In this document: positions 1 through 46,090 of the stretch, in pieces
Numbering within the stretch: position 1 is the first letter of the stretch
Layout of the letters: every line of letters begins with the position of its first letter
Source of the DNA: Squalus acanthias
Taxonomy: Eukaryota
Direction of reading: 5' to 3'
Assembly: GCA_030390025.1 (NCBI GenBank)
Contig: CM059432.1
Location: 77,502,001 to 77,566,000, forward strand
Length of the DNA: 64,000 bases
Translations under genes and position numbers: made by a program
The notes under the pieces: model-generated
The model's input: only the letters and a program-made list of their open reading frames with translations
Told to the model about the DNA's origin: nothing
Databases searched by the model: none

Positions 1-430
1 TGACCTGGCACTCGAGATAATCTATTCTTGTTTTAAGGTGACTGGAGATTTCCTGGCTTTCTTGGTGCAACTCATTTAACTTCTTAATGAGCACTTCCCC
101 TCCAGAAACCTTCTCATCCATTTCTCCCTCTAAATGACTGATTCGAGCTACTAGCGCTGTAATGGTCTGGTTTGAAATCTGAACCTGCCTTTTGTAACAC
201 ATAAGCCAGACTGCTTTCTCAAGTGTCTTTCTATGTTCTTTACTATCTGTCCACCTTTCGGCTGCCTCTAGCGGGCTTTTATCCGCTAACAATTCACTTA
301 TCCATTTCTTAGTTAAATTAACCTTTCCGAACACATAATCTGCTATCTTTTCCTGCATAACATTTCGTACAGTCATTCCAAAGTCTAACACACTACCCTC
401 TCGCTGCCAGTGTCCTGCCGCGGTCGCCAT
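1..430 (-). CDS. gag: 5' part of gag of the next tandem unit (truncated by window edge)
   Basis: Near-identical to 7685-8114; ATG at 430 corresponds to ATG at 8114 (offset 7684). Confidence 0.88.
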   Translation of the reverse strand, partial: MATAAGHWQREGSVLDFGMTVRNVMQEKIADYVFGKVNLTKKWISELLADKSPLEAAERWTDSKEHRKTLEKAVWLMCYKRQVQISNQTITALVARISHLEGEMDEKVSGGEVLIKKLNELHQESQEISSHLKTRIDYLECQV

Positions 431-549
431 TTTCTGTAAGGGATTCTGACCCTGCGTGTCTCGCAGCCTGTGAGATTCACGCGGCTCTGTGCAGCCTGTA
501 TGTCAGTGCGGGTCTAGGCCTTGTTGCCTGTTCTGGTCTCCAGCCAGTC

Positions 550-2090
550 TGGGAACACTAGACACACCTGTGAGTGGTTCGAATCACTCGCCCTTACGGT
601 TCTAGACACTGGACTTAGATGCGAGAGCAGTAATGGAGATGAAACTCATGTAGACTCGGTTGAATGGTACGAAATGGAAAATCTTTATTGCATGATACTT
701 AAGATTATGAAATACATGTCATAAGCACAGATTAATGACAGTACAATCTTACAAGCAGTTATATAGTCGATCTTAGGGAAACGAGGAACGAACGGCACAT
801 AGTAAATAGGGGCACACATTACAAATATCCTTAATCCTTAAACCCTCCCCTATCAATATCTATCCTAACTAGATTCGTAGGATTTCGAGACTCATGCTCA
901 CCACTCGTGATAACTCGGAGAAATTCCGAATAGCTGATCGGATGTTTTTCACCGCAGCACCCACGTGTCGGTCAGGAGATCTCCTGGTCCCACTTGTTTA
1001 CTTGCTTCTGCTGCTCCGGCTAGCAGGCTGGACCGTCTGCTGTGATGAAGACCTGTGTTGGTTGGTTTAACAGGTACTTTCCGAGCACAGTTGTCAATAT
1101 CATCGATGTGATATGTTCTTTGCAAGTTCGAAGAAGTCTTCCTGGCAAGGAAAACTTGGCTATTCGACCTACAGGCGCGGTCGGGATTTACTGACCGTGG
1201 CGATGGATATGGTCTTCCTCTCTTCTCATCTCATCTCATCTCATCTCGGGCCTTTGGTTCCGCTGCCAGTTACCAACATAGGTCTTCGTTACGCGACACG
1301 AGGTAGATCCGAATGGATCAGAAAGTTCAACAGTCTTTTTCAAAAAGGCAACAGGCAAGCAGGAGCCCGACTACGAGTACACAGGAGCAGCCACGAGGTT
1401 ACGAAATAAGATAAGAGCACAGGAGCAGCCACGATGATAAGAGTCGATCGGATAAGAGAAAGATGGACGGTTTGGAGCCTGCAATTATAGTGCAAAATCT
1501 TCCGTTTCCCGCCCAACCTTAATGTCCATTCTTTTGTTTAGGGTCTGGCGCTCAAATGTCTTGTATGGGTGATCTCCGTTCTTAATGGGTTTCGGGGCTA
1601 CTCGTAAATGTCTGAGTACCTGTTAATATTTCTCCCATTGTTAAATCGGTCGGTGTTCTCCCTGGAGGGGTTGTGGGGCTTCCAAGTGTTTTGTATAACT
1701 ACCTGCTAACGGCTCTCTCATCGTAGAGTCGTTGGGATTTTACATATTAATGTCTTTTGGATGGGCCCTTGATTACTCGGTACAATAGCTTTCATTTGTA
1801 CCTGGGAGACCGATTTCAGTATTTATGTGTATACTGCAAACCCATAATGTCTCGTGTATTATCTTCACTGTGCTGAATCTTAATCGATCTTGCACAAATG
1901 TTTATTGGAACGCCATCTTGTCTGCCTGTTGAAAAGTCTAGAATGTTCTGTCACGAGGTGCGGCGGCCATTTTACAGGCTGCTTGTGTCCACTTTAAACC
2001 TGGCAGCATTCTGCTGAAATAAAAGCTGTTTGAACGAAACTCTGTGTTTTCTCCTTATTAATAAAATCGCGATATATTGCGAATTCTACA
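550..2090 (-). repeat. LTR shared between tandem units (~1.5 kb; U5 end uncertain, ~550-569)
   Basis: Starts TGT at 2090 directly after PPT; AATAAA at 684-689 (minus); copy at ~8234-9775. 3' boundary is inferred only. Confidence 0.72.
684..689 (-). promoter_or_regulatory. Polyadenylation signal AATAAA in LTR (also 8368-8373)
   Basis: Plus-strand TTTATT about 120-135 nt from the inferred LTR 3' end. Confidence 0.6.
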
Positions 2091-2102
2091 GTCCCTCCTG
2101 TT
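2091..2102 (-). promoter_or_regulatory. Polypurine tract
   Basis: Minus strand AACAGGAGGGAC immediately precedes the TGT LTR start; absent next to the outer LTR at 9775. Confidence 0.7.
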
Positions 2103-2540
2103 GATGCGAATAACTCCGCTTATCGTATCAAAAATCATAGTGGTGAGCAATATTATCTCGATTTCTCTCCGAATCCAGCAAATTAATCCCATAACTTTAA
2201 CCTAGCTAGGGTCTCTGTGTCGTCCTCATTTCCCAAGAAAATTACATTTTATATCACCGTAGGCATTATTTGCCCTTAAACTTACACCACTTGTTTTCCT
2301 TCCCGGCGTAACCAGGCCGATGCCTCTCGTATCACCTGTATATTCATCTTTTATTCAGGGAAAGGAAAAACAAAACCCAAAACCAAACAATCAATTCTAA
2401 CTGTAACACCATCACCAAAATAATCAACACCAACTCTTAAAACATGTCGAGTTCCAAACGTATGTACAATCTCTGAAAATCATGATCGAGTACAAACTTC
2501 CGCGGCGCACGTGGCGAGCGGGAGTGACGCCATTTTCCGA

Positions 2541-4892
2541 TTACACGGTGCTTTCATCGTGCACGCGCACGTAACGTTCTCGCCACTCTCCCGTGTTTTC
2601 ATGCTTGGTGAGGCGTTTGTCTCTTTTACAATGTACGACCAATAGGTACACTACAATAAACACTTGGCATACGACTAAAATGTGGGAGGCTATTCTGATC
2701 CATGAAGGCACTTCAATATTAGTGAACAGATTCCACCACGGTGGAACTACTATATCCAAAATGTCTGTTCCTATTTCGACAGTTTTCTGCTCTAATGTGT
2801 AAAAATGTTTCTGTGACACCGCGACGGCTTTTAAAAGTTTGGTGAGGTGTTCAGGGAGAGGGGGAATGAGGTATCCAAAATGCGCGACGAATCGCTGCAA
2901 GTCGGTGAAATTCTCTTTTACTGTGAGATGAACAGTGGATGGTTCAGGGATTGGGATAATTCGCTGTTGTGCTACTTGAACTTCCGCCCTGGGTTTAAAA
3001 CAGAAACTGCTGTCACTCACCGGACACCGGCTACGGTTTCCATGCTGGTAGTGTTGCGCTGCAGTGGTAACACAATATGTTCCACCCCCGATGTATGCTA
3101 CCTGCGGAGGCACATGATCTTGTGCCATTGCCTCCATGGTGCAATTCATGGACTTGGCGCCAGTCGTTCTGAACCCGCACTGTGGTGTTAAAAAGGCATT
3201 CAAGTGCTGGGGGCACAGTATTATGTGTGCTCCCCTGCCACGACAACCAGAGAGATCTGTACCTGTCATCGTTTGCTCCCAGCGGATGACGTAAGGTGGA
3301 ACCGCTGCGTAACGAATGTGGGCTCCCCCCTGAATGACACCAATGTTCTCTACCCGATATACCGGGGCGGGCTTTGCTGTGTCGCCCAAAACCGGCATGC
3401 GTAATACTATTCCCATAATAGTATGGTTTGAACGTCCGCAGTCCACGGGGACTGGGTAAGCTTCTGAAGCTAGCCTGAGCTGGCACGGACTTAATGCGTT
3501 CTGAAAAGGGTGGAGCGCCCGCAGGTGTTTGTTACTTATCCAGGACGGAACCAAACCTTGTTTTAAATCCTCCAAATTACTGCGGCCCTCGCCCAGTAAC
3601 CACGCCCCGTAAAGCACGCACACCTCGTTCTGCGCAGCTTGATCGGATGCATTCCGATCTTCCCTAATCAGGGCATTTACCGTCTTTGCATGTTTCTCCA
3701 ACTCTGCTATAATTTCCTTTAAATGGAGAGTCATGGCTTGGTCCTCGTGTAAACCTGACCCTACCACTTTATTCTCATCTGTTAGAATGTCTTTTAATTG
3801 TGTCTTTAAACCATTAATCTGGGTCTGCAGCTCCACACTGTCTAGAGCGTTGACCACAGATGTACCCGTGTTAAAAGCAGTGAACGCATCGTTCACCAAA
3901 CCCCTTCTTTGCCTCCCTGCTTGATTCAGAACTTCCTGTGGTGCGGTGTACAAACTTGTTTTATCAATTTCCGCGAAATCGAATTCGTAAAATTGTCTGA
4001 ACATCTTGGTCAACAGGACCTGATACAACTGTTCCGTCTTTTTGGGGCACCACTCTGGTAACCGCACCTCGGTGAGATTTAAAATCACCGAGGCCACCGC
4101 GTAATGTACTCCCTGAAATAGTATCTGGTCTGTGGGGACCAGTACCAAACCATTCCCGGGTCCCTTACTAGTTTTAGGGCACCCTTCTTCCTCAGCTAGA
4201 ACCACCGGAATCGTGGGCGGGGCTTTGCGTGGGCGCGTAATGAGCTCAGTGGCATTTACTGGGATCGGGGAGAATGGGGCTCCGCACCCCCTGGTGCTCG
4301 CATCCCACCTCATCCCCTGTCCGTTATCCTGCCATTGATTAATGAAAAATATGGAGATGCCTTTGGGGCAAACGTACTTTGACCCCCACATACATACATA
4401 AATTCCCTCGTCCGGTTCCCACCATTTGTCCCAACAGACTTTCACTTGTCCGTTTGTCCCCGTAATTGTCCGATGGGTATTATTACCCAGTCGTTCCCAC
4501 TCGACCGAAGAGTTCCTCATAGTTTTGCTCAGCTTTCGCAGCCACCACCATCGGCTCAATGGGACCTTCCCACTACAAGTCAAACAAATCCGTTTGCCGA
4601 CGGTGACGCTAATCCTGGGTGCGATGATCCTTACTTTGGGGCACATTAAAGAAGTCTCTTTGTAGGCAAACCCCGATGTGCTAGAATACTCCGTTGAGTT
4701 CGTTCCCAGCCATCCTGGCCACCTTCCCTTGTGGAAATAGGTGCTGGTCTCCTCTGCCTCCCGTCTTCCGGTCCCATCCACCGCGATGGGGGCCGTGTCC
4801 CCGGAACATCCAAACACCACGACATCCTTGGTGCGGCCTCGATAGGCCAATCCACATCCGATTGCCACGAGCAATACTAGAATTCGTTCCAT
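2541..4892 (-). CDS. env: Envelope glycoprotein, ~783 aa from ATG 4892: signal peptide, Ig-like domain, furin site, F-like class I fusion subunit, TM anchor
   Basis: MERILVLLVAIGCGLA signal-like segment; LTC..WWW..DEGIYVC Ig motif; RQRR/GLVNDAFTAF at 3903-3914; heptad repeats; Cys-rich region; C-terminal hydrophobic ILVVCQVFIVVYLLVV; many N-x-S/T sites. ORF track opens at GTG 5075. Confidence 0.85.
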   Translation of the reverse strand: MERILVLLVAIGCGLAYRGRTKDVVVFGCSGDTAPIAVDGTGRREAEETSTYFHKGRWPGWLGTNSTEYSSTSGFAYKETSLMCPKVRIIAPRISVTVGKRICLTCSGKVPLSRWWWLRKLSKTMRNSSVEWERLGNNTHRTITGTNGQVKVCWDKWWEPDEGIYVCMWGSKYVCPKGISIFFINQWQDNGQGMRWDASTRGCGAPFSPIPVNATELITRPRKAPPTIPVVLAEEEGCPKTSKGPGNGLVLVPTDQILFQGVHYAVASVILNLTEVRLPEWCPKKTEQLYQVLLTKMFRQFYEFDFAEIDKTSLYTAPQEVLNQAGRQRRGLVNDAFTAFNTGTSVVNALDSVELQTQINGLKTQLKDILTDENKVVGSGLHEDQAMTLHLKEIIAELEKHAKTVNALIREDRNASDQAAQNEVCVLYGAWLLGEGRSNLEDLKQGLVPSWISNKHLRALHPFQNALSPCQLRLASEAYPVPVDCGRSNHTIMGIVLRMPVLGDTAKPAPVYRVENIGVIQGGAHIRYAAVPPYVIRWEQTMTGTDLSGCRGRGAHIILCPQHLNAFLTPQCGFRTTGAKSMNCTMEAMAQDHVPPQVAYIGGGTYCVTTAAQHYQHGNRSRCPVSDSSFCFKPRAEVQVAQQRIIPIPEPSTVHLTVKENFTDLQRFVAHFGYLIPPLPEHLTKLLKAVAVSQKHFYTLEQKTVEIGTDILDIVVPPWWNLFTNIEVPSWIRIASHILVVCQVFIVVYLLVVHCKRDKRLTKHENTGEWRERYVRVHDESTV

Positions 4893-5180
4893 CCTTCCTT
4901 GGTTCCTGTGATCAGATAGAATGAGGTAGCCAGCCTCGCAAGAGTCTCTGGCTTTTGTGAAGGGTGAGCGGGTCCCCTGACCTCGCCTCACGTAAACTTC
5001 AACGTTCGCTGAATAAACTTTAACTAAACCTATCTTTAAAGCTCCCATCATTTTATCGTTTTCTGTTAAAAACACTACAATCTTAACCTTATCAAAAAAC
5101 TATAAACTTAACCTTGAACTATTAACTTAAAACTTAAAACTTATAACTTTACAGTGCCGCCCGTTCTCAGGGCGGCCCCT

Positions 5181-6302
5181 TTAAATTCTGAGAAGGCTGC
5201 TGCGAGCTCTTCCCGACGGTGGGAGGGCACTGACCCTTCCCTCTGATCTGCCGCAGCCTGTTGCTGCTGCGATGTGGCCGGCCTGTATCTGGGTTATCTT
5301 AACCTTAACTCTACGCCTTGGGGCAGTCTGGGGACATGACCACATCCTCCTGGGCTGGGGTTCTCTACTTGACCTACGGGGAGTTGCTATGGGCGGGGGT
5401 TCCGTGACGGACGGACCGGGTTCCGAGACTTCCATCGGGATGACCTGGGGTTCCATCACAGTCGCTGGCTCCGCCTCCGCTGACTCCGCCTCCCTAACCT
5501 CGGGGCTTGCAGTTTGTGGCCCCGCCCTGCTTGGCCCAGCAGGCGGCCCTTCACTCGTGATCTCTGCCTCCCCCGAGGACGGGACGTTCAAAGCGGGCGG
5601 CCACATCTCTGGGAGCCACACCGGTACTCTCTGTGCTCCCATAGCGGCTGGCCCTGCCTCCCCTAGCTCCTCCCTCCTGTCTTCGGGACCTGCAGCTTGT
5701 GTGTCCACCCTGTGTGGATCTCTACCTGCAGCCCCCGTTCCCTCCATATCGTAAATGGGACCGTTCCTGAGAAACCACCCGTCGTCATCACTATTCTCAT
5801 CTGCACTGTCCTCATCTGACCCGGGTACCCTGAATTCTTCCTCATCTAACCCCCAATTCCAGAAAAACGCTGCATGATCTTCCGGGATGTCCCTTCCCCT
5901 GATGCAAGCTGCTATGCCTGCCTGTGTGCCTTGTGGTCCTACCTGGGGCTGTGCTTTCCCACTGGCGGGATTTACCCCTGTAGTTTTCCCTTGCGCACCT
6001 GGCTGGTACAGTTTGCATTGGTTTACATCCTCATACTCCCGGCTTTTGGCTACCCTGTAGGCTGCTTTTATCTCTCTAAGCTGCGCTTCTAGCCTGAGCA
6101 CGTCTAACTTTCCCATTGATCGGGCGTTCTCCTCCCGCAGGGCCTGCTCTCTAAGCTGCCCTTCCAGCCCATCTATTTTCCCTATTAAGCGGGCGTTCTC
6201 CTCCCGCAAGGCCTGCTCTTTTAACCTGGCCTCCTCACCGCAGACCCCCTCCTGTGCGTGTCTTTTAAAAGGACACAGGTAGGCAGGCTGCGTGGGCTCT
6301 AG
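5181..6302 (-). CDS. ORFX: unknown coiled-coil + acidic + Pro-rich protein, in frame with gag (probable readthrough extension)
   Basis: Open from the codon after the gag TGA (6302) to TAA at 5181; the ORF-track start at 6209 is TTG, not ATG. Confidence 0.75.
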   Translation of the reverse strand, partial: LEPTQPAYLCPFKRHAQEGVCGEEARLKEQALREENARLIGKIDGLEGQLREQALREENARSMGKLDVLRLEAQLREIKAAYRVAKSREYEDVNQCKLYQPGAQGKTTGVNPASGKAQPQVGPQGTQAGIAACIRGRDIPEDHAAFFWNWGLDEEEFRVPGSDEDSADENSDDDGWFLRNGPIYDMEGTGAAGRDPHRVDTQAAGPEDRREELGEAGPAAMGAQRVPVWLPEMWPPALNVPSSGEAEITSEGPPAGPSRAGPQTASPEVREAESAEAEPATVMEPQVIPMEVSEPGPSVTEPPPIATPRRSSREPQPRRMWSCPQTAPRRRVKVKITQIQAGHIAAATGCGRSEGRVSALPPSGRARSSLLRI

Positions 6303-8114
6303 TCATTGGGTACTATTAGACGGTCCTGCGGCACCTACGGGGCCGGTTGCGACCGCCACCTGTCCACGCGCATTCAAGATTAGATTGCGCATGGCTCCTA
6401 ACACTACTTCGAGGTCGTCAGGAGGGGTGGGTGCCTTAGCTTCCTTAGCCGGGACAGGCGCCTGGGCTCGGACCGCGGGATTTTTATCCTTGGAATCCTT
6501 CCAAGGGTTCCTGCAATGCTTGCGCCAGTGCCCTGTCTTCCCACACCCGTAACAAGCATTACCTGCCTGTGGGGCGCGATTACCCTCCTGATGCCACTCT
6601 CTTTGATACGGGGCTGCGGGTCGTACCTCATGTACTCTTCCCTTAAGGGGACGTGTTGCCATACCCCTTATATTGCGATATCCTAACGTGAGTCGATTCA
6701 AGACCGACTCTTCCGTAATGTTGGGGTCATTGGGATCAAACCATGCTTTTGCCTGCTCTCTGACGGCTGGTAAACTGTTGGCTATTATGCACCTAAGCCA
6801 ATGAGTTAAAGCGGTGCCTTCCACATCTTCGCGCTCTGGCGCACCTAGGCAGCTGCGCTCATAAACTGGCCACAGCCTGTCGGCAAAAACCTTCGGGGGT
6901 TCTCCCTCCATCTGCACTGTCTGTCCCACTCTAGCAAACGGACCTTCATCGTTCGCCCCCAACACTTCCAGGACCTCATCCCTCAATTCCTCATAAGTCT
7001 TGGTTCCCCTCTTGCTCTCGCCTGAGAGACACTGAAGAACCGAGCTGTCTAGTGAGAACAGCAGCATTTTTGCTGTCTCCCCATCATCGCAGCCGTTAAT
7101 GGCTGCGGCTTGCTCAACTTCTCTGAAATGTACGGAAGGGTCGTCTGACTCGGTCAGCTTCCGTACGTGATTTATCATAGCTCTCAGCTGGTGTGAGCTG
7201 TGAGGCAACACCAGCTGTCCGAGGAGATCCCCCGGTTCTTCCCCACCGTTTCTGTTTGGGCCCCTTTTAATGCCCGTTACTGGATACAACGGTCCCTTTC
7301 CTACTTCTTTTTCAATGGGCTCTTTTGTTTCTTCCATTGCTTCCTCCCTTACCCAGGTTTCCGAATAGCTGGGTGGCGCGGAGGGCGCAGTGGCTACTAC
7401 TTCTTCTGCTTTGCTTGGTGGGGATTTCTTAAACTTCTCACTTACTAGCGGCTGGTGTGCTGACGGACTGATCAGGCACACCATGCCGTTCGCTTTGTTT
7501 ACGGCCTTCTTGAGGTGCTCTATCTCCCTTTGGCAGGCGCTATGGTCGGCTCCCTCAAACTTATCCTCAAGGGCCAACTTATATGCCGCCCTAACCCCCG
7601 TTAAGCTCTCTTCTTGAGTTCTTATCTGGGCAGCTTGGCGGTTACATCTTTCCTTTAACCTGCTCTCATTCAACTTTGCCTCAGTGACCTGGCACTCGAG
7701 ATAATCTATTCTTGTTTTAAGGTGACTGGAGATTTCCTGGCTTTCTTGGTGCAACTCATTTAAATTCTTAATGAGCACTTCCCCTCCAGAAACCTTCTCA
7801 TCCATTTCTCCCTCTAAATGACTGATTCGAGCTACTAGCGCTGTAATGGTCTGGTTTGAAATCTGAACCTGCCTTTTGTAACACATAAGCCAGACTGCTT
7901 TCTCAAGTGTCTTTCTATGTTCTTTACTATCTGTCCACCTTTCGGCTGCCTCTAGCGGGCTTTTATCCGCTAACAATTCACTTATCCATTTCTTAGTTAA
8001 ATTAACCTTTCCGAACACATAATCTGCTATCTTTTCCTGCATAACATTTCGTACAGTCATTCCAAAGTCTAACACACTACCCTCTCGCTGCCAGTGTCCT
8101 GCCGCGGTCGCCAT
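6303..8114 (-). CDS. gag: Gag-like protein, 603 aa
   Basis: N-terminal coiled coil, PPSY late-domain-like motif, capsid-like central region, CCHC knuckle CYGCGKTGHWRKHC at 6513-6554; first ORF after the LTR. Confidence 0.88.
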   Translation of the reverse strand: MATAAGHWQREGSVLDFGMTVRNVMQEKIADYVFGKVNLTKKWISELLADKSPLEAAERWTDSKEHRKTLEKAVWLMCYKRQVQISNQTITALVARISHLEGEMDEKVSGGEVLIKNLNELHQESQEISSHLKTRIDYLECQVTEAKLNESRLKERCNRQAAQIRTQEESLTGVRAAYKLALEDKFEGADHSACQREIEHLKKAVNKANGMVCLISPSAHQPLVSEKFKKSPPSKAEEVVATAPSAPPSYSETWVREEAMEETKEPIEKEVGKGPLYPVTGIKRGPNRNGGEEPGDLLGQLVLPHSSHQLRAMINHVRKLTESDDPSVHFREVEQAAAINGCDDGETAKMLLFSLDSSVLQCLSGESKRGTKTYEELRDEVLEVLGANDEGPFARVGQTVQMEGEPPKVFADRLWPVYERSCLGAPEREDVEGTALTHWLRCIIANSLPAVREQAKAWFDPNDPNITEESVLNRLTLGYRNIRGMATRPLKGRVHEVRPAAPYQREWHQEGNRAPQAGNACYGCGKTGHWRKHCRNPWKDSKDKNPAVRAQAPVPAKEAKAPTPPDDLEVVLGAMRNLILNARGQVAVATGPVGAAGPSNSTQ

Positions 8115-8233
8115 TTTCTGTAAGGGATTCTGACCCTGCGTGTCTCGCAGCCTGTGAGATTCACGCGGCTCTGTGCAGCCTGTATGTCAGTGCGGGTCTA
8201 GGCCTTGTTGCCTGTTCTGGTCTCCAGCCAGTC

Positions 8234-9775
8234 TGGGAACACTAGACACACCTGTGAGTGGTTCGAATCACTCGCCCTTACGGTTCTAGACACTGGACTT
8301 AGATGCGAGAGCAGTAATGGAGATGAAACTCATGTAGACTCGGTTGAATGGTACGAAATGGAAAATCTTTATTGCATGATACTTAAGATTATGAAATACA
8401 TGTCATAAGCACAGATTAATGACAGTACAATCTTACAAGCAGTTATATAGTCGATCTTAGGGAAACGAGGAACGAACGGCACATAGTAAATAGGGGCACA
8501 CATTACAAATATCCTTAATCCTTAAACCCTCCCCTATCAATATCTATCCTAACTAGATTCGTAGGATTTCGAGACTCATGCTCACCACTCGTGATAACTC
8601 GGAGAAATTCCGAATAGCTGATCGGATGTTTTTCACCGCAGCACCCACGTGTCGGTCAGGAGATCTCCTGGTCCCACTTGTTTACTTGCTTCTGCTGCTC
8701 CGGCTAGCAGGCTGGACCGTCTGCTGTGATGAAGACCTGTGTTGGTTGGTTTAACAGGTACTTTCCGAGCACAGTTGTCAATATCATCGATGTGATATGT
8801 TCTTTGCAAGTTCGAAGAAGTCTTCCTGGCAAGGAAAACTTGGCTATTCGACCTACAGGCGCGGTCGGGATTTACTGACCGTGGCGATGGATATGGTCTT
8901 CCTCTCTTCTCATCTCATCTCATCTCATCTCATCTCGGGCCTTTGGTTCCGCTGCCAGTTACCAACATAGGTCTTCGTTACGCGACACGAGGTAGATCCG
9001 AATGGATCAGAAAGTTCAACAGTCTTTTTCAAAAAGGCAACAGGCAAGCAGGAGCCCGACTACGAGTACACAGGAGCAGCCACGAGGTTACGAAATAAGA
9101 TAAGAGCACAGGAGCAGCCACGATGATAAGAGTCGATCGGATAAGAGAAAGATGGACGGTTTGGAGCCTGCAATTATAGTGCAAAATCTTCCGTTTCCCG
9201 CCCAACCTTAATGTCCATTCTTTTGTTTAGGGTCTGGCGCTCAAATGTCTTGTATGGGTGATCTCCGTTCTTAATGGGTTCGGGGCTACTCGTAAATGTC
9301 TGAGTACCTGTTAATATTCTCCCATTGTTAAATCGGTCGGTGTTCTCCCTGGAGGGGTTGTGGGGCTTCCAAGTGTTTTGTATAACTACCTGCTAACGGC
9401 TCTCTCATCGTAGAGTCGTTGGGATTTTACATATTAATGTCTTTTGGATGGGCCCTTGATTACTCGGTACAATGGCTTTCATTTGTACCTGGGAGACCGA
9501 TTTCAGTATTTATGTGTATACTGCAAACCCATAATGTCTCGTGTATTATCTTCACTGTGCTGAATCTTAATCGATCTTGCACAAATGCTTATTGGAACGC
9601 CATCTTGTCTGCCTGTTGAAAAGTCTAGAATGTTCTGTCACGAGGTGCGGCGGCCATTTTACAGGCTGCTTGTGTCCACTTTAAACCTGGCAGCATTCTG
9701 CTGAAATAAAAGCTGTTTGAACGAAACTCTGTTTTCTCCTTATTAATAAAATCGCGATATATTGCGAATTCTACA
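8234..9775 (-). repeat. 5' LTR of the element (U5 end uncertain)
   Basis: Identity to the first copy ends exactly at ...GAATTCTACA (9775), followed by CR1 sequence. Confidence 0.75.
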
Positions 9776-44700: not shown

Positions 44701-45100
44701 AGCAATTTTCCCAAAATCGGGGTTTCAGACCCTGTTTCTACGGGATAGGCCCTTAACAACCAGTTAAGTGCCTCTATAATCCCATTTTGAGAGTCCTTTC
44801 TGAATTTAACACATTTCCCCCGTGCTGCACGTCTCCTCTGGAACATACCAGTTAATCCTGGCGGCCTCACAAGTGGATGGCGTACTAACAGCTGCAGCTC
44901 CACCATTAAAAAAGAGTTTTCAGCAATCATCATTTGCAGGTGGCAGAACTTTGTTGTCTCAGGTCTGGGAGAACTTTTAGCAGGCCTACTCATTGTTGTG
45001 GAAGTTTGGAGCCTGAGACCCATCTCCAGTGTGACCTCCTGGGAAACCCCTCTCTCCACCTTGACTGAGCGCTTCCTCAACTGAGGTATATACCAGAAGC

Positions 45101-46090
45101 ATGGGAACCATTTATTTCCTTTCCTCCTGGACATCAGATTCGGACGAAGACCAGCCGCGGCAGCAGCAGCACCCGGAACAACAGCAGCACCAACAGCAGG
45201 AGCAACAACAGGAGCGCCAAGCTGCTGCTCAGCCACCTGAAGTTGCACAGGCCAGAAGGCGCCAGCGCTTGGAAGTATGTCGCCGCAGGAGATACCCCCA
45301 AAACAGGGTTTACAGACAGAGGATGAGCTACCTCAACATGACTGAGCAGCAGTGCCAAAGGAGGCTGAGACTTTCGCGAGATGTAGTCTCTGACATCTGC
45401 GCAATGCTGCAGCAAGATCTGGAGCCCAGAGGAGCGGGTGGACACCCCTTACCAGTGGCCATCAAAGTCACCACCGCACTCAACTTTTTTGCTTCAGGCT
45501 CATTCCAGGGATCAACAGCAGACATCAGCGGCGTCTTCCAGGCGGCCGCACACACTTGTATCATGCAGGCGCACAATTACATCAACTTCTCCAAGGATCA
45601 AGCAAGTGTAAGCGCGCGTGCGGTTGGATTTGCTAATCTGGCAGGCTTTCCAAATCTGGCAGGCTTTCCAAGGGTGCAGGGCGTCGTTGACTGCACACAT
45701 GTGGCCCTTAAGGCACCCCATCACAATCCAGGTATTTTTGTCAACTGCAAGGGCTTCCACTCCCTCAACCTGCAGCTGGTGTGTGACCACAAGAAGGAAA
45801 TTTTGCATGTTTGCGCCAAGTACCCTGGCAGTTGCCATAACTCCTTCATCCTGCGCCAGTCTAGTGTGCCGTCGGTCTTCAGTCCGCCAGACCAACTTTT
45901 CGGATAGCTACTTGGAGACAAGGGCTATCCCCTGAAGACGTGGCTAATGACGCCGTTGAGGAGCCCATCCAATGAAGCTGAGGAGCACTACAACTCCAGC
46001 CACATTTCCACCAGATCCATAATAGAGCAAACCATCGGCTTGCTGAAGATGCGATTCAGATGCCTTGATAGATCAGGTGCAGTACTCAGC
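45101..46090 (+). pseudogene. Harbinger transposase, premature TAG at 45905-45907
   Basis: [61 protein letters not shown]. Confidence 0.88.

Follow-up and report, generated by a model that had tools for sequence, protein, structure and literature searches.

In a 64,000-nucleotide stretch of Squalus acanthias DNA (the window: GenBank assembly GCA_030390025.1, contig CM059432.1, positions 77,502,001 to 77,566,000 of the forward strand), the minus strand carries a retroviral element with the order LTR-gag-ORFX-env-LTR (LTR, long terminal repeat), which is one unit of a tandem. The element lacks pol; its gag ends at a UGA in the leaky UGA-CUAG context, and this stop is in frame with the open frame named ORFX. 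The question raised by the locus is what such a stop serves in a copy that has no enzymes to express. Comparison with other copies shows that this TGA marks the boundary of gag and pol in an LTR retrovirus family, whose enzyme-bearing copies continue into pol in the same frame. The copy in the window is derived from such elements and has lost pol; its frame after the stop consists of a pol stub, a piece of gag and the tail of Pol.

The gag stop as a Gag-Pol junction

The minus strand reads CAA TGA CTA GAG CCC ACG at 6308-6291, and 8114-5181 forms one frame with a single internal TGA, giving 977 residues (603 + 1 + 373, with X at the stop), as described in the first-pass annotation. The gag frame (6303-8186, stop to stop) abuts a 373-codon frame (6302-5181) in the same register. 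The 31 sense codons reported after the stop are likewise present; the 342-aa open reading frame (ORF) that follows them is open as claimed but has no Met start, since it begins at TTG (6209). The LTR end is followed immediately by the gag ATG at 8114, which sits on the TGG of a sequence resembling a primer-binding site (8098-8116), so that the true gag start, and with it the figure of 977, is uncertain by a few codons.

The stop context is not a product of chance: with uniform bases, TGA-CT(A/G)-G is expected after ~0.3% of stops, and TGA-CTAG is found in 30/30 of the closest copies. A capsid-region search gave 149 matches, 30 of which were fetched; after TGA-CTAG, 21 of these loci lead into protease and 9 into ORFX. 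The earlier suggestion that pol-bearing relatives would show TGACTAG followed by an LEPTQPAYLCP-like pol start holds for all 21, which continue in frame with an LEPAQPVYLCP-type sequence and reach the protease DTG at codon 36. One such frame has 1507 codons and contains, according to Pfam, protease (PR), reverse transcriptase (RT), two RNase H-type domains and integrase (IN).

The position of the enzyme relative to the stop bears directly on how Pol is made. Residues 16-48 of Pol align with residues 5-37 of HIV-1 protease, and the first Met of Pol, codon 24, falls inside this aligned region, behind the part corresponding to HIV-1 residues 5-12, with the N-terminal strand preceding it; translation from this Met therefore cannot yield a complete protease. 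The N-terminal strand of retroviral protease has a role in dimer formation. A single in-frame stop between the Gag knuckle and the protease DTG is found in 21/21 pol-bearing loci of family A, to which the window copy belongs, and also in two related families, B and C. Taken at the level of sequence, pol-bearing copies very probably make Gag-Pol by reading through UGA-CUR (R, purine), and the view of the stop as the ancestral Gag-Pol recoding site is borne out. Termination-reinitiation at the overlapping ATGA was considered and rejected, as that frame has just 13 codons.

A broader sample was obtained with a family-A junction pattern in which the stop was left open; it gave 1163 matches and 0 in the control, copies with changed flanks being missed. 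The 100 junctions listed comprise 97 TGA-CTA, one TAA-CTA, one TGA-CTG and one sense codon, and by hand count 55 have an ORFX-type stub and 45 a pol-type stub; pol was present in 13/14 of the pol-type junctions checked. Two loci, L069 (G000:C2:83660500-83670499) and L166, have a sense codon at the junction and continuous frames of 949 and 730 codons, respectively, and are singletons rather than subfamilies. Locus L088 (G000:C2:19916858-19922742) shows three pol-type junctions 2926 bp apart, a tandem partial duplication.

TGA-CTR is kept in three pol-bearing and three pol-less lineages, with the frame open, so that the conservation of frame and motif predicted for other copies is observed. In family B (Gag ~45% identical; 56 loci), TGACTG is found in 12/12 pol-bearing and TGACTAG in 42/42 pol-less copies, with 2 junctions unplaced. 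In family C (Gag 64-69% identical; 20 loci), 8 pol-bearing copies have TGACTAA and 10 pol-less copies TGACTGG, one has a sense codon and one is garbled. The stop is always followed by CTA or CTG, whereas CTR supplies only 35-47% of the Leu codons of these pol frames. After CUR, five lineages have G and pol-bearing C has A. The constancy of CTR is suggestive, the six lineages being related rather than six independent draws. The stubs of pol-less A and C differ at 4/10 synonymous codons yet keep TGA-CTR-G, and the pol-less C context, differing from that of pol-bearing C, is not simply copied from the helpers.

Composition of ORFX and its counterparts in families B and C

ORFX is no unrelated ORF occupying the place of Pol, and the earlier proposal needs amending on this point: the C-terminal tail of Pol itself makes up about three-quarters of ORFX, and a pol stub and a duplicated piece of gag account for the remainder (coordinates in Table 1). 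The window DNA matches pol-bearing copies up to 6271 and resumes from 6025, its stub being closer to a second pol subfamily than to the L062 type. In the pol-bearing frame, PR, RT, the two RNase H-type domains and IN, as placed by Pfam, all precede the tail. The insert between stub and tail is open in the readthrough frame only, with 8 and 5 stops in the other frames, and its Gag profile score is reached by 1/2000 and 2/2000 shuffles. The insert of family C is older and longer, with more of the coiled coil and a piece of capsid helix, and matches the Gag homologue P0003 with 39% identity over 83 residues, which settles the origin of the insert as duplicated and deleted gag. A foreign gene as the source of ORFX is ruled out by the DNA comparison with pol-bearing copies and by the family C insert. 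No homologue of ORFX was found among 8000 scored candidates, none of the insert in 1.84 billion representatives, and no Atlas match above 0.82.

The tail itself is divergent but retains short motifs, with ~40% identity between families. At 5181-5420 in the window and in the tails of families A, B and C, these motifs are a PRRSxRxPQPRxxW stretch and a Cys-containing repeat with a 39-nt unit that varies in copy number. In the eight relatives that have placeable ends and stop at integrase, with frogs, coelacanth, turtle and bony fish among the sources, Pol ends 2-11 residues past it; judged from these, the long post-integrase tail looks lineage-specific. In one copy, L105, ~850 nt of unrelated sequence is inserted inside ORFX.

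Family B came to the gag-stop-scrap-tail plan independently and with other scraps: its pol-less ORF keeps the frame of pol throughout and contains a protease piece, an RNase H end/linker and the family's own tail, with deletions of 18 nt and 3 nt upstream of its conserved Met. Just downstream of one family-B copy, the stretch L083:7132-9927 holds a further env, tail and integrase piece in inverted orientation.

Selection on the frame and the competing readings

Readthrough from gag into ORFX probably also takes place in the pol-less copies, as far as can be judged from the state of their frames. The proposal that the recoding site still yields a minor Gag-ORFX fusion is supported in part, frame and context both being kept in pol-less lineages. 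All five lineage-shared indels in sequence specific to the pol-less copies are multiples of 3 (-69, +6, -138, -24, -3), for which the chance is 0.4% at one third each, and the founder junctions are in frame in both deletion families. For the A copies, this count leaves out the rows of 37/42 copies at nt 280-480, a non-homologous replacement by pol tail after which the net frame is open. Single-copy indels are mostly frameshifts (28/38 in family B). Among 150 scored ORFX copies, 129 have an open frame of at least 368 codons.

The in-frame shared indels and founder junctions weigh against an inert relic, the alternative in which stop context and frame are pol leftovers refreshed by recombination with helper copies, without any gain. 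Such a relic would also not account for an insert open in the readthrough frame only, or for a pol-less C stop context unlike that of its helper. Moreover, UGACUAG alone is expected to leak, at least ~1.3% readthrough being given for it (PMC13517186), so that low-level translation would persist even in a relic. Recombination with pol-bearing copies is nevertheless frequent, as exemplified by an ORFX copy that carries a stub of pol type (L087) and by a pol-bearing copy with a deletion-type tail junction (L075). The tail indels are common to pol-less and pol-bearing copies, the dN/dS signal is weak and the copies are young, all as expected for leftovers. On balance, an inert relic is judged unlikely. 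Taken by themselves, the mosaics L075 and L087 indicate exchange in both directions between pol-bearing and pol-less copies.

Several results count against continued use of the frame. In codon models with 27 rows, amino-acid constraint on the insert is weak (omega 0.64-0.65, p 0.10-0.11); codons 12-39, which precede every Met, give 1.6-1.9, and the constraint is located past the ATG, at codons 63-92 (omega 0.41, p 0.052). Pairwise values of 0.28-0.42 take no account of transition bias. Common tail variants in pol-less A have pN/pS 0.93 vs 0.30 for gag, in a tally that leaves out 4/42 copies with a second junction type; between two pol-bearing copies the tail gives 0.56 vs 0.03 for RT. In family B, the specific part has pN/pS ~1.0, in a within-family test that is powerless, as the gag control is likewise unseparated, and a +1 slip in a C run is common to 6 copies. 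Pol-bearing copies share the in-frame indels found in the tail of pol-less A, which thus give no independent support. In addition, the copies are best matches and young, which favours intact frames. Finally, a search by folding for one RNA structure common to all six lineages found none. A downstream fold had been proposed for examination, and here the outcome is divided, as the window copy does have a predicted hairpin but no stem is shared across lineages. The hairpin has p 0.014 against synonymous shuffles, and 0/278 other folding windows are as strong; a separate folding test gave z -2.09 and -1.63. Its 3' strand comes from the insert, and pol-bearing copies fold otherwise or vary with the length folded. 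Collectively, the conserved frame is better supported than an amino-acid function.

This imbalance is what would be expected if only translation past the gag stop mattered, the unspliced RNA being spared nonsense-mediated decay (NMD) and the protein being incidental. The frame is conserved whereas the amino acids change almost neutrally, the scraps that occupy the slot are unrelated between two families, and readthrough elements inhibit NMD in reporters (PMC5360307). The gain would be small, however: the distance to the start of the 3' LTR is 4.2 kb from the gag stop and still 3.1 kb from the ORFX stop. Both families also end in the Pol tail and keep its short motifs despite the divergence noted above, and the longer insert of family C gives omega 0.43 (p 0.019; codon model, 9 rows), neither of which suits an incidental protein. 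Decay protection is ranked below the inert relic and is likewise improbable.

A further alternative is that ORFX is translated from its own ATG (codon 63, at 6116) on a spliced or separate mRNA, the frame being selected for that 311-aa protein. The Met is nearly invariant in family A (Table 1), an equivalent one is present in the three family-C copies checked, and no amino-acid constraint is seen before codon 63. On the other hand, the ATG has a weak context (T at -3 in the window), with an out-of-frame ATG 56 nt upstream, and no pyrimidine-rich CAG/TAG acceptor lies between the stop and the ATG, in a scan that did not include AAG acceptors. The A/C stub-insert junction and the 18-nt and 3-nt deletions of family B are three events that precede the first conserved Met and preserve the frame, with a chance of ~4%, and retention of TGA-CTR would be left unexplained. 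Contigs of four runs guessed to be RNA give 11 listed joints; one is the env splice joint, and none leads from the donor into ORFX; as such contigs show presence only and are no proof of absence, this weighs neither for nor against the readings compared here. One of these contigs spans 6135-6341 unchanged. Initiation at the internal ATG ranks last among the four readings. Retention of the tail for the sake of the env splice acceptor was rejected, as the acceptor lies 270 nt beyond the ORFX stop; the rejection extends to the acceptor and not to other RNA elements in the tail.

The reading ranked first, by analogy and tentatively, is that the pol-less copies kept the leaky stop because a minor Gag-ORFX fusion benefits their own RNA in cis while helper copies provide the enzymes. 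Helper copies very probably make Gag and, by the UGA-CUR leak, Gag-Pol ending in the tail. In pol-less copies, a few percent of ribosomes would pass the stop and make Gag-ORFX, which would confer an advantage on its own RNA with borrowed helper enzymes. The likeliest useful part is the Pol tail, in frame in both independent deletion families, which would enter particles through the Gag moiety at the stoichiometry of Gag-Pol. Its conserved basic PRRSxR-type motif suggests that it may bind nucleic acid or chromatin. This cis benefit is placed first because two families converge on the tail and because of the analogy with mouse intracisternal A particle (IAP) 1-delta-1 elements, the gag-pol fusion of which is said to act in cis (PMC6466679).

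A wider form of the proposal is more doubtful. In it, a retrovirus lineage of cartilaginous fish would have in this tail an accessory module that has escaped recognition and is needed in cis at Gag-Pol stoichiometry; enzyme-less parasites would repeatedly adopt the order gag-leaky stop-in-frame spacer-tail-env, with the readthrough site kept for a non-enzymatic minor Gag extension, and UGA-CUR would be an overlooked Gag-Pol signal shared with part of the lokiretroviruses.

Relation to known systems and other features of the window

Readthrough from Gag into Pol, UGA-CUAG contexts and non-autonomous deletions that stay in frame are all known singly. Their combination, repeated in independent lineages, was not found in the literature, in a search to which subscription papers, Repbase and bioRxiv supplements were external. 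Readthrough of a gag-pol stop is described for MoMLV, WDSV, SnRV, SSSV, ZFERV and RMEV among fish, gamma- and epsilonretroviruses (PMC13517186), which resemble the present family in that one in-frame stop separates the Gag knuckle from the protease DTG. They differ in using UAG contexts and UGAAGA, UGACGA and UGAAGU instead of UGA-CUR (PMC13517186), and here the site persists in enzyme-less copies. The primary context is that of the alphavirus, plant-virus and cellular UGA-CUA(G) signals (PMC3159437; PMC13517186). The 3' stem of these is described with a spacer of 8-12 nt (same sources), and the window hairpin starts 11 nt after the stop; in contrast to such signals, no stem is conserved across the six lineages. 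The present sequences add a UGA-CUR context to retroviral Gag-Pol recoding.

With mouse IAP 1-delta-1, the pol-less copies have in common an internal in-frame deletion, dependence on helpers, a fusion derived from Gag-Pol and high copy success (PMC6466679): the enzymes are deleted, a helper family is present and the deletion is in frame. Unlike in IAP 1-delta-1, gag is intact and the fusion is separated from it by a leaky stop, which would make the fusion a minor product; a duplicated gag coiled coil is included, env is kept and there are at least two origins. If the site is still used in pol-less copies, a recoding signal outlives the gene it served, and does so repeatedly in independent lineages. 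Two questions, why non-autonomous deletions stay in frame and what the long Pol tail does, would then become testable with short reporters.

The same signal, apparently unremarked, is present in published lokiretrovirus sequences. In the supplement of PMC7947760, the gag genes of Ofa, Cne, Pyo and Sau, read by eye, close with TGA-CTAG, and pol follows in the same frame (4/17 motif matches, motifs split between lines being missable), and 4/4 separately listed gag genes end in TGA; the main text, in its available portion, mentions neither readthrough nor a stop codon in this connection. No paper on readthrough in lokiretroviruses was found by the literature search. In their available portions, PMC9040795, PMC10435555 and 10.1101/2021.11.23.469661 do not mention readthrough, and PMC12440569 does so once, in an unrelated context. 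Lokiretroviruses and zebrafish Bhikhari share with the present family an N-terminal coiled coil in Gag and dual RNase H-type domains (PMC7947760; 10.1101/2024.03.25.586437). By contrast, several lokiretroviruses have an unbroken gag-pol ORF (PMC7947760) and Bhikhari consists of gag only (10.1101/2024.03.25.586437). Lokiretroviruses are reported absent from 3 Orectolobiformes genomes examined (PMC7947760).

The label lokiretrovirus was rejected for the present family. In a quick tree of 120 RT rows, its RT is placed next to frog and coelacanth Pols, within a retrovirus clade of 46 rows (SH-aLRT 96), while P0026, the one loki-like row and recognised by its protease motif only, lies outside on a long branch. 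The best PDB matches for RT are gammaretroviral and foamy RT. The RT thus tentatively groups with vertebrate retroviruses, apart from the single loki-like row. The tether plus RNase H in Pol (PF17919/PF17917 and PF00075) is common to all retroviruses and not diagnostic.

Gag of the window copy has no Pfam match itself and weak nucleocapsid matches; its homologue P0002, 51% identical, carries PF00098, and its best named homologue is from skate. The 5' and 3' LTR regions are 99.4% identical over 2095 columns, adjacent sequence included. The env splice joint (8585 to 4904) is seen in one contig of run X2, one of the runs guessed to be RNA, with 21 letters on the short side. The ORF in the env position has no Pfam or PDB sequence match, to paramyxovirus F or otherwise.

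Table 1. Features of the minus-strand element, in coordinates of the window
Feature	Position	Strand	Basis or remark
TGA-CTAG, putative Gag-Pol readthrough site	6299..6305	-	sequence, conservation in copies
11-codon pol stub, start of protease-bearing frame	6270..6302	-	27/33 nt identical to pol-bearing L062
Predicted hairpin, +11 to +64 after stop	6239..6292	-	pair probabilities near 1; putative function
81-codon insert from end of gag coiled coil, 69-nt internal repeat	6027..6269	-	Gag profile, family C form
First in-frame ATG of ORFX, codon 63, weak context	6114..6116	-	gives 311 aa; in 41/42 copies
Post-integrase Pol tail, 281 codons, low complexity	5181..6026	-	93-98% DNA identity to pol ORF end in pol-bearing copies, same frame
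gag, 603 codons: N-terminal coiled coil, capsid region, one CCHC knuckle	6303..8114	-	homologue P0002
Splice donor of env mRNA	8584..8585	-	GT..AG joint 8585 to 4904
Splice acceptor of env	4906..4907	-	270 nt downstream of ORFX stop
env-position ORF	2541..4892	-	position
5' LTR (~1.66 kb)	8119..9775	-	matches LTR pair of solo copy L069, 4-bp target duplication
3' LTR	435..2090	-	common to next copy of head-to-tail tandem (unit 7684 bp)

Head-to-tail tandems with a common LTR are seen in the window (1-9775) and at L063, both with a unit of 7684 bp, and pol-bearing tandems have a unit of ~11.05 kb. Elsewhere in the window, many CR1/L2-type LINE remnants (15500-39200) and a Harbinger-type transposase-like ORF (45065-45907) are recognised by eye.

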